From the IMG/VR virus record IMGVR_UViG_2563366877_000001: 37,097 nt of DNA; one strand, given 5' to 3'. Under the pieces are notes generated by a model. That model was given only the letters and a program-made list of their open reading frames with translations, had not been told where the DNA came from and made no database searches. Source of the DNA: a virus. Lineage: Duplodnaviria; Heunggongvirae; Uroviricota; Caudoviricetes. This document shows, one piece after another, positions 33,492 to 35,163 of the stretch (positions are counted from its first letter, which is position 1; the number at the start of each line of letters is the position of its first letter). A program made the translations under genes and the position numbers.

Positions 33492-33524
33492 TGGAACTGT
33501 GGCTGACGGTGAACGGTGTAGTGG

Positions 33525-34436
33525 TCAAGTAATATTGGCCACGGTTTTACAGTAAAAATGGTATCTGTTCTCTGACTCTTCCGGCGTCAGCCCACCGTTA
33601 TAATGGTGAGGTCTGACGCTGTTGTAGTAGTTCAATATGTAATCATTAATTTGCTGCCGGGCCTCGTCCTTGCCTGCGTAACCATTCGTTGGCACCCATT
33701 CTGTTTTCAGACTGCGGAAGAAGCGTTCCATGGGGCTGTTATCCCAGCAGTTTCCCCGCCGACTGACGCTTTGATTTATTCTGCAACGCCAGAGAAGTTG
33801 TTGATATTTAAGGCCTGTATACTGGCTTCCCTGGTCGCTATGGAACACGACATCCCGGGGTTGGCCACGCGTCTCATAGGCCATCCGCAGGGCACTGCTT
33901 ATCAGTGCGGTATCGGCATGCGCTGACAGACTCCAGCCGATAACCCTGCGGGCAAAAAGATCCATAACAACCGCCAGATAGCACCAGCGATTTCCTGCCC
34001 AGAGATACGTAATATCTCCACACCATACCCGGTCTGGCTCCGGTACTGCGAACTGACGCTCAAGCAGATTCGGCAGGCTGGTATGCTCCTGACGAGCATT
34101 TTTATACTGATGTTTTCCGGGCTGACAACTGCTCAGGTTCAGATATTTCATCAGACGTCCGGCACGGTAACGGCTCATCGGGACGCCGTTTTGAGTCAGC
34201 ATTTCAGCCAGAGTGCGCGCGCCCGCAGAGCCCCGACTTTGGTTCCACGCCCGGCGTATTTCGCTGCACAACCTGACTCGTGCCGGATTAACCGTATCGC
34301 GTCGTTTTCGCCAGTACCGGTAACTGCTGCGGTGTATTTCCAGAGCAGAACACAGGCTGACAACCGTGTGGCTGTCACTTAGTCTGGCGGCTATCGTGAA
34401 CCGTTCAGCGAGTCGGACATTAAGAGCGCGGTAGCC
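33525..34436 (-). CDS. IS3-family transposase OrfB (DDE catalytic domain; expressed by -1 frameshift from OrfA)
   Basis: DDE integrase-core motifs; A AAA AAG slippery site on the minus strand at about 34436-34442; upstream boundary approximate. Confidence 0.8.
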
Positions 34437-34702
34437 TTTTTTAATATCGTATTTTGTTCCTCCAGACGGCGAACTTGCTTTTCCAGCTCGCGGATACGTT
34501 GCTGGTCTGGAGTAATGGGTGTGGCAGAGGGCGTAATACCCTGGCGCTCTCGCCTGAGCTGGCGTACCCAGCTCTCAAGCGTGGTTGAACCGACATTCAT
34601 CGCTTCACTGGCCTGTCGATATGAGTAGCCCTTATCAACAATCAGCTGTGCACATTCCAGCCTGAACTCAGGGGTGAAGGTTCGTTTGGTTTTCTTGTTC
34701 AT
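34391..34702 (-). CDS. IS3-family transposase OrfA
   Basis: HTH protein with leucine-zipper-like C-terminus; resembles IS911 OrfA (…[14 protein letters not shown]…); start at MNKKTKRTF. Confidence 0.85.
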
Positions 34703-35163
34703 TAAGTCACCTGTTTTGTGTTGTGGTGAGAATATCACCTTTCATCAGGTGGCCAAATTTAGTGTGCCACTACACGGTAAACGCACCTGCGCCAGCGCAC
34801 CGCTGGATCCGCTGACCCGCGCCGTGGTGATTTCCCTGTTTACCTGGCGACGGGCGGAGCCTGATGACAACGCCGACGTCCCGATGGGATGGTGGGGGGA
34901 TACCTGGCCTGCGGTACAGAATGACCGTTACGGCTCCCGACTGTGGCTGCTTCAGCGCAGCAAACTGACCAATCAGCTGGTGCAGACGGTAAGGGGGTAT
35001 ATCCGCGAATGCCTGCAATGGATGATTGATGACGGCGTGGTGTCCCGTATTGATCTGGATATCCGCCGCACCGGGATTAATGAACTGGGTAACAGTATCA
35101 CTCTCTGGCGTCGTGACGGACCGGTAATGATTTCTTTTGATGATCTGTGGAGTGCGATAACGC

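Follow-up and report, generated by a model that had tools for sequence, protein, structure and literature searches.

The 37,097-nucleotide (nt) virus record IMGVR_UViG_2563366877_000001 (hereafter the window, meaning the whole stretch of DNA analyzed) is 100% identical to scaffold KB732530.1 (GCA_000351165.1). In its late region, a complete insertion sequence (IS) of the IS3 family splits a gene similar to gp46 of phage Mu, the gene for baseplate wedge 1. The IS is 1,258 bp long and lies on the minus strand at 33517–34774, antisense to the phage late operon. To its left is the 5′ stub of the gp46-like gene (33488–33516, plus strand), which reads into the IS and stops there. To its right is the 3′ remainder of the gene (34778–35177, plus strand), which contains the Pfam GP46 domain in full and overlaps the start of the next gene at 35164. 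The IS is flanked by a target-site duplication, to which no strand applies, with a left copy of CGG at 33514–33516 and a right copy at 34775–34777. The results presented here make it highly likely that a common E. coli IS3-family element has recently inserted into the gp46-like baseplate wedge-1 gene of an SfV-type prophage, with tail assembly probably blocked.

The two ends of the IS, which were re-derived by script, read TG...CA. The terminal inverted repeat upstream of orfA (IRL; 34749–34774, minus strand) reads TGTAGTGGCACACTAAATTTGGCCAC as the reverse complement, and the repeat downstream of orfB (IRR; 33517–33542, minus strand) reads TGTAGTGGTCAAGTAATATTGGCCAC. Of their 26 positions, 20 are identical between the two repeats, among them the first eight and the last eight. 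Their outer 8 bp are TGTAGTGG, and an identical inner block is GGCCAC. Between the repeats, orfA (34391–34702, minus strand; frame 0, IS positions 73–384) encodes a helix-turn-helix protein of 103 amino acid (aa) residues (Pfam HTH_Tnp_1, E = 8.8e-13), the exact sequence of which was found on at least 1,000 contigs. In the −1 frame, orfB runs to a stop at 33525, which is IS position 1250. A slippery heptamer, A AAA AAG, is located at 34436–34442 (minus strand; IS positions 333–339), in register with the orfA frame. A predicted −1 shift at 34436 would yield an OrfAB transposase of 392 aa (33525–34702, minus strand) with the Pfam domains HTH_Tnp_1, HTH_21 and rve, of which rve matched with E = 5.3e-27. 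OrfAB scored 360.6 bits against the NCBIfam model of the IS3 family transposase (NF033516, cut-off 160). Its catalytic residues are D230, D290, and E326, the last two of which are separated by 35 residues (D-D-35-E). A protein identical to the 392-aa OrfAB read from the DNA is present at NCBI, where it is annotated as “IS3 family transposase”, and RefSeq labels equivalent copies of the IS elsewhere with “programmed frameshift”. When 111 nt 3′ of the A6G site were folded, the predicted RNA structure was no better than that of shuffled sequences (z = −0.13), and the Rfam scan gave no match to a frameshift element at the A6G site.

With its orfA/orfB layout, A AAA AAG heptamer, DDE residues, inverted repeats and 3-bp duplication, the element is an IS3-family insertion sequence. 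A preliminary description of the window, made from its letters alone, had placed such an element at 33517–34774 between two CGG copies, and these coordinates are exact to the base. The same description had given the element intact transposase frames, as an orfA/orfB pair, and an A6G frameshift site, in agreement with the frames, the register of the heptamer and the exact 392-aa match.

Near-identical, active-looking copies of the IS are widespread in E. coli. Hundreds of E. coli chromosome and plasmid records contain the 1,258-bp sequence in full length at 99.9% identity, and some match to it was present in 2,416 of 5,426 complete E. coli genomes, at up to 17 places per genome. Relative to the copy in the window, these matches fell into two sequence classes, one at ≥99% identity and the other at 90–95% identity. 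Six other copies were fetched, and the ends of all six were identical to those of the window copy. The sole difference between the window IS and the six copies is at IS position 680 (window position 34095), which is T here and C there; the change is synonymous (GCT/GCC, Ala). Four of the six have a 3-bp duplication at their flanks (TAT, AAT, GAT, and ACG, respectively). Given that these duplications occur at the same ends, they support both the boundaries of the IS and the length of the duplication in the window. The remaining two copies (E. coli E2863, 613258–615115, and FORC_069) have unrelated flanks without matching 3-bp repeats, which suggests IS-mediated deletion, recombination or later rearrangement. 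The private T at 34095 could help to find the copy in the source genome that acted as donor.

The insertion point lies within the Gly-10 codon (GG|T), at codon 9/10 of the gp46-like gene. Removal of the IS and one CGG gives the junction ...GTGAACGG|TAAACGC..., which is uninterrupted and matched exactly in phage SfV, where one single GTGAACGGTAAACGC is found at the insertion position. The empty site joined in this way (629 nt) was 100% identical to that of E. coli strain 3036, which also has a single CGG, and an intact empty site was contiguous in 1,093 of the 5,426 complete E. coli genomes. A query of 5,234 bp aligned with phages SfI, SfII, SfIV, SfV, SKA5, and vB_EcoM-689R6 in two pieces that spanned 3,973 bp per phage, which is exactly 5,234 minus 1,261. 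The rejoined protein has the same sequence as SfV Orf18, annotated as “similar to phage Mu GP46”, and exact copies of it were found on at least 1,000 contigs. The preliminary description had proposed that excision on paper of the IS and one CGG restores a complete Mu gp46-like gene in frame, and had named a comparison with relatives lacking the insertion as the check. Comparison with the SfV-type phages, strain 3036 and the complete genomes returned the uninterrupted gene, and the restored reading frame is the one proposed.

The rejoined protein scored 113.2 bits against Pfam GP46 (PF07409; gathering threshold 28.6) with E = 6e-33 over residues 22–125. It also matched the Protein Data Bank entry 9ki1_A, “Baseplate protein gp46”, with E = 9.8e-15 over query residues 20–124. 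Judged from identical scaffold genes searched with Pfam and from the annotation of SfV, the order of genes in this region is gp44 (hub)-gp45 (spike)-gp46-gp47 (Baseplate_J)-gp48. The upstream neighbor (32943–33491, plus strand) is a gp45-like gene for the baseplate spike (assembly protein V), as indicated by Pfam Phage_Mu_Gp45 on the identical scaffold gene and by the annotation of SfV orf17. The downstream neighbor (35164–36222, plus strand) encodes a gp47-like Baseplate_J wedge protein and is translationally overlapped with gp46. Mu gp46 is the counterpart of T4 gp25, P2 gpW, and TssE of the type VI secretion system (PMC6300606). Similar to members of this family, the window gene belongs to Pfam GP46, matches 9ki1 and is positioned between the spike and Baseplate_J genes, and on this sequence evidence it is assigned as the counterpart of Mu gp46, baseplate wedge 1. 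Different from Mu, the gene here is split after codon 9/10 and its host phage is a lambdoid mosaic of the SfV type. GenBank annotates a 137-aa “GP46” at 34764–35177 (plus strand; 10001–10414 of a 20-kb segment of the source scaffold), the GTG start of which lies 11 nt inside the end of the IS; this annotation is a truncated pseudogene reading, and its GTG is not where the gene naturally starts.

The insertion itself is rare. The left junction was found in none of the 5,426 complete E. coli genomes, and the junction was also absent from the GTDB species-representative genomes. Exact-protein look-up of the 167-aa and 142-aa readings across the junction gave no match. Look-up of the 137-aa reading returned two draft assemblies at NCBI, which are that of the source scaffold and one other. 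In the latter, a 3.6-kb contig begins exactly at the end of the IS and shares the right junction. Given the perfect duplication, the undecayed split gene and the single private synonymous change in the IS, the insertion appears to be recent on an evolutionary scale and limited to a narrow lineage. Recency had been suggested before from the duplication and the intact transposase frames, and the near-identical copies of the IS and the absence of the junction from 5,426 genomes point the same way.

The element that carries the insertion is an integrated phage. Positions 1–1254 of the window are proA, followed by the tRNA-Thr(CGU) gene thrW at 1369–1444 and the open reading frame (ORF) of a tyrosine integrase at 1459–2622. 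The early region is lambdoid and contains int, a xis-like helix-turn-helix gene, exo/bet/gam, an S24 repressor gene, O/P, a nin region, rusA, and Q. It is followed by lysis genes, an HNH endonuclease gene, terminase genes, HK97-type portal, protease and capsid genes and a contractile tail module of the Mu type. Based on this gene content, the host element is assigned to the lambdoid mosaic prophages of the SfV/SfI type, integrated at thrW next to proA. A transposable Mu-like phage was considered and rejected, as the early region is lambdoid with int/xis and only the tail module is Mu-like. An element of the e14/icd site, brought up by a match to KE58, was likewise rejected, as the window begins with proA-thrW.

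The prophage shares with SfV, SfI, SfII, SfIV, and SKA5, which integrate at thrW and combine an HK97-like head with a Mu-like tail, a baseplate module of 97.3–97.8% DNA identity and identical gene order. In the SfV-type phages, however, orf18 is uninterrupted, and the early region of the prophage in the window, which is lambda-like (exo/bet/gam, O/P, Q, Bor), differs from theirs. In strain 3036, the morphogenesis module was 97.7–97.8% identical and is located at the same chromosomal site. Apart from the insertion, the 19-kb morphogenesis module was colinear and frame-preserving against that of strain 3036, and over 17.6 kb the IS was the only structural difference; the alignment has two gaps, both inside the HNH gene, that compensate each other. 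Except for the split gp46, the structural genes in the window all match their annotated counterparts in strain 3036 in length. The 56 bp at window positions 1399–1454 (attL, at the 3′ end of thrW) recur at 17626–17681 of the 20-kb scaffold segment, approximately 5.3 kb past the end of the window, and this second copy is attR. The genes for Int, the repressor, terminase, portal, and capsid all look intact, as do the attL/attR repeats. Given the thrW integrase and the intact appearance of Int and the att repeats, the earlier suggestion that the prophage can still excise is reasonable.

IS3-family elements move by a copy-out-paste-in route through a circular intermediate, with OrfAB made by a −1 frameshift at A AAA AAG, and the same pathway is presumed here from knowledge of the family. 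A resident copy of the IS would have transposed into the Gly-10 codon of the gp46-like gene, and the insertion would have duplicated the 3-bp target CGG. The native start of the gene, GGAGG-ATG, has a predicted pairing energy of −9.3 kcal/mol with the anti-Shine-Dalgarno (anti-SD) sequence, and translation from it now ends after 14 residues. The 132 downstream codons with the conserved domain are cut off from this native start signal. Lambdoid late transcription is antiterminated by Q. In the IS, the search for plus-strand terminators returned one weak terminator-like hairpin, at or below the level expected by chance. Since transcription is Q-antiterminated and the hairpin is no more than chance would give, polarity on gp47, gp48, and the fiber genes is probably limited to the translational coupling lost at the gp46/gp47 overlap.

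In phage Mu, gp46 is baseplate wedge protein 1 (BW1), which is present in six copies at the corner of the tube initiator and acts as the sheath initiator (PMC11915804). Given this role, with six copies per baseplate and the start of sheath polymerization, loss of the protein would be expected to affect the tail. Induction would lead to excision, replication, packaging into DNA-filled heads and lysis, without functional contractile tails, and the outcome would probably be tail-less and non-infectious particles. Some points weigh against so complete a defect. The conserved GP46 domain lies wholly downstream of the insertion, and an N-terminally altered protein might be made. Gp46 could also come in trans from a second prophage whose tail module is homologous. 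Finally, the window stops exactly at a 1.8-kb run of N (12337–14106 of the 20-kb segment) in the tail-fiber region, beside a Pin-type invertase gene. As the tail-fiber end falls in this gap of the scaffold, the fiber genes are unassembled, and the prophage can be called intact only for its assembled part.

For the altered protein, translation would restart at a TTG or GTG in the end of the IS, and the resulting Gp46 would have its first 9–10 residues swapped and its domain intact, so that tails are built, perhaps less efficiently. An ORF is open in frame from 34674 into the gene, and both the GP46 domain and the similarity to Mu gp46 start at residues 20–22, past the break. The in-frame TTG at 34686 and GTG at 34764 have anti-SD pairing energies of −6.6 and −5.9 kcal/mol, respectively, with spacings of 9–10 nt. 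AGGTGG is found approximately 10 nt 5′ of the GTG, from which the 137-aa product of GenBank also starts. In addition, Q-antiterminated transcription should pass through the IS, with its single weak plus-strand hairpin below chance. These candidate starts, however, are not ATG, and both their pairing energies and their spacings are inferior to those of native GGAGG-ATG, the former being weaker and the latter longer. Moreover, the gene is no longer coupled to the gp45 stop, the search in and around the IS returned no promoter-like site, and the N-terminus is identical across the more than 1,000 contigs with the exact protein, which suggests that it is under constraint. Tolerance of the insertion by such a restart is thus considered very unlikely. 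A similarly low, if slightly better, chance is given to the broader idea that the insertion is not null, with a start supplied by the IS and a partly functional prophage, or that it is kept because it locks in a prophage with cargo (Bor, DUF3800 and a GIY-YIG nuclease) while stopping the release of virions.

Masking of the defect by a co-resident prophage, such as a relative at the e14/icd site whose Mu-type tail module supplies Gp46 in trans, is also judged very unlikely. Up to four homologous loci occur per E. coli genome, at different att sites (icd in KE58 and thrW in 3036), with the protein approximately 99–100% conserved among them; the median, however, is one locus per genome, and the 20-kb segment of the source scaffold contained no second copy. 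Another explanation would be that misassembly produced the arrangement, or that the IS entered long ago and became fixed in a prophage that was already cryptic. In favor of this, the source is a draft scaffold with N gaps, and an IS fragment (rve_3) is located near attR. Misassembly, however, makes no target duplication. Since both junctions are contiguous in one scaffold with a perfect 3-bp duplication, and the second assembly has the right junction, an artefact is unlikely. An old insertion is difficult to reconcile with rejoined DNA that is 100% identical to the intact allele, neighboring structural genes of full length, an IS one synonymous change away from the consensus and a junction found in 0 of 5,426 complete genomes. 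The rve_3 fragment is common to strain 3036 and thus predates the insertion. An artefact or an ancient event is therefore regarded as extremely improbable, and a recent insertion that disables the tail is the preferred reading.

Transposition of IS3-family elements leaves the donor copy in place, and for that reason reversion of the insertion is unlikely. The IS-excision enhancer acts on IS3-family elements, and strains with it might revert. IS elements are over-represented in E. coli prophages, have been found in key phage genes and have been proposed to trap prophages (PMC5359411). The earlier idea that this prophage is on the path to becoming a cryptic element is speculation, and it agrees with that literature. 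Similar to cases of inactivation or entrapment of prophages by IS elements, such as IS629 in the prophages of O157, an IS3-family element is found here in a key phage gene. Different from the O157/IS629 case, the target gene and the IS species are others, and the case in the window is known from sequence alone. In other strains, head-tail joining and portal genes are likewise interrupted by the IS of the window.

The IS, the interrupted gene, the mechanism and the consequence are all of known or textbook kind; the finding is correct and ordinary, and it leaves the understanding of IS elements, prophages, and contractile tails unchanged. The locus is a clean and fully reconstructable example of the first step in prophage decay, in which a temperate phage, otherwise intact, has taken a single IS hit in an essential tail gene. 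The locus can be used to correct annotations, as a strain marker and as a naturally occurring gp46 insertion mutant of an SfV-type phage.

PGAP, RefSeq, and PLSDB annotate this variant of the IS as “IS3 family transposase” and nothing narrower. A cluster-mate NCBI protein, “IS3-like element ISEc31 family transposase”, was 94% identical over OrfB. The IS is accordingly described as related to ISEc31, with this NCBI label at 94% OrfB identity as the sole proxy for ISEc31 itself. ISEc31 proper may correspond to the second sequence class, at 90–95% identity; the papers found to mention ISEc31 give neither its length nor its sequence. At 1,258 bp, the window IS compares with ISEc31 and the IS911-like members of the IS3 family in its imperfect TG...CA inverted repeats, orfA (helix-turn-helix) and orfB (rve, D-D-35-E) in frames 0 and −1, the A AAA AAG heptamer and the 3-bp duplication. 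Its organization is IS911-like, and it presumably resembles IS911 in roughly half of the OrfA residues and in the frameshift region. An apparent L87F difference between OrfAB and the common NCBI proteins raised the possibility of a mutated slippery site. This possibility was rejected, as the DNA there is identical in the six copies, and the difference is attributed to an annotation artefact, the place at which PGAP joins the frames. The FORC_069 copy joins unrelated genes, namely a GTPase gene and ypjA/ehaD.

The IS also contains a match to a small RNA (sRNA) family. The Rfam model isrC (RF01387, “Hfq binding sRNA”) matched 34584–34706 (minus strand) over the full model with 150.4 bits, against a gathering threshold of 39. 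The match spans from 4 nt before the ATG of orfA through codon 40. On sequence grounds, it is taken to reflect the IS and not an independent sRNA gene. Since the match covers the 5′ end of orfA, the “isrC” family itself appears to be derived from IS sequence, and this IS group has probably left the isrC loci of Salmonella and E. coli K-12 as remnants. Such an origin would explain the patchy distribution of isrC in E. coli and Shigella (PMC3318445) as well as its location in islands and prophages (PMC2330248, PMC3175480). Every copy of the window IS will be annotated automatically as an isrC sRNA. As a further side reading, an Hfq-binding “IsrC” RNA borne by the IS and antisense to the late operon might modulate late gene expression.

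Several additional features of the prophage and its surroundings were observed. A DUF3800 protein encoded between Q and the holin gene (15104–15907, minus strand) and a Bor-like lipoprotein encoded after the lysis genes (17394–17735, minus strand) are likely cargo. No gtr genes for serotype conversion were seen in the 20-kb scaffold segment at the right end of the prophage, which includes the 1.8-kb N gap. A 1.5-kb segment of the nin region (11122–12602), with a 164-aa signal-peptide protein at 11254–11748, is likewise counted as likely cargo and is missing from the closest E. coli relative. Beyond attR, a CP4-type island with cbtA/cbeA, radC, and antirestriction genes follows, which places two mobile elements in tandem at thrW.

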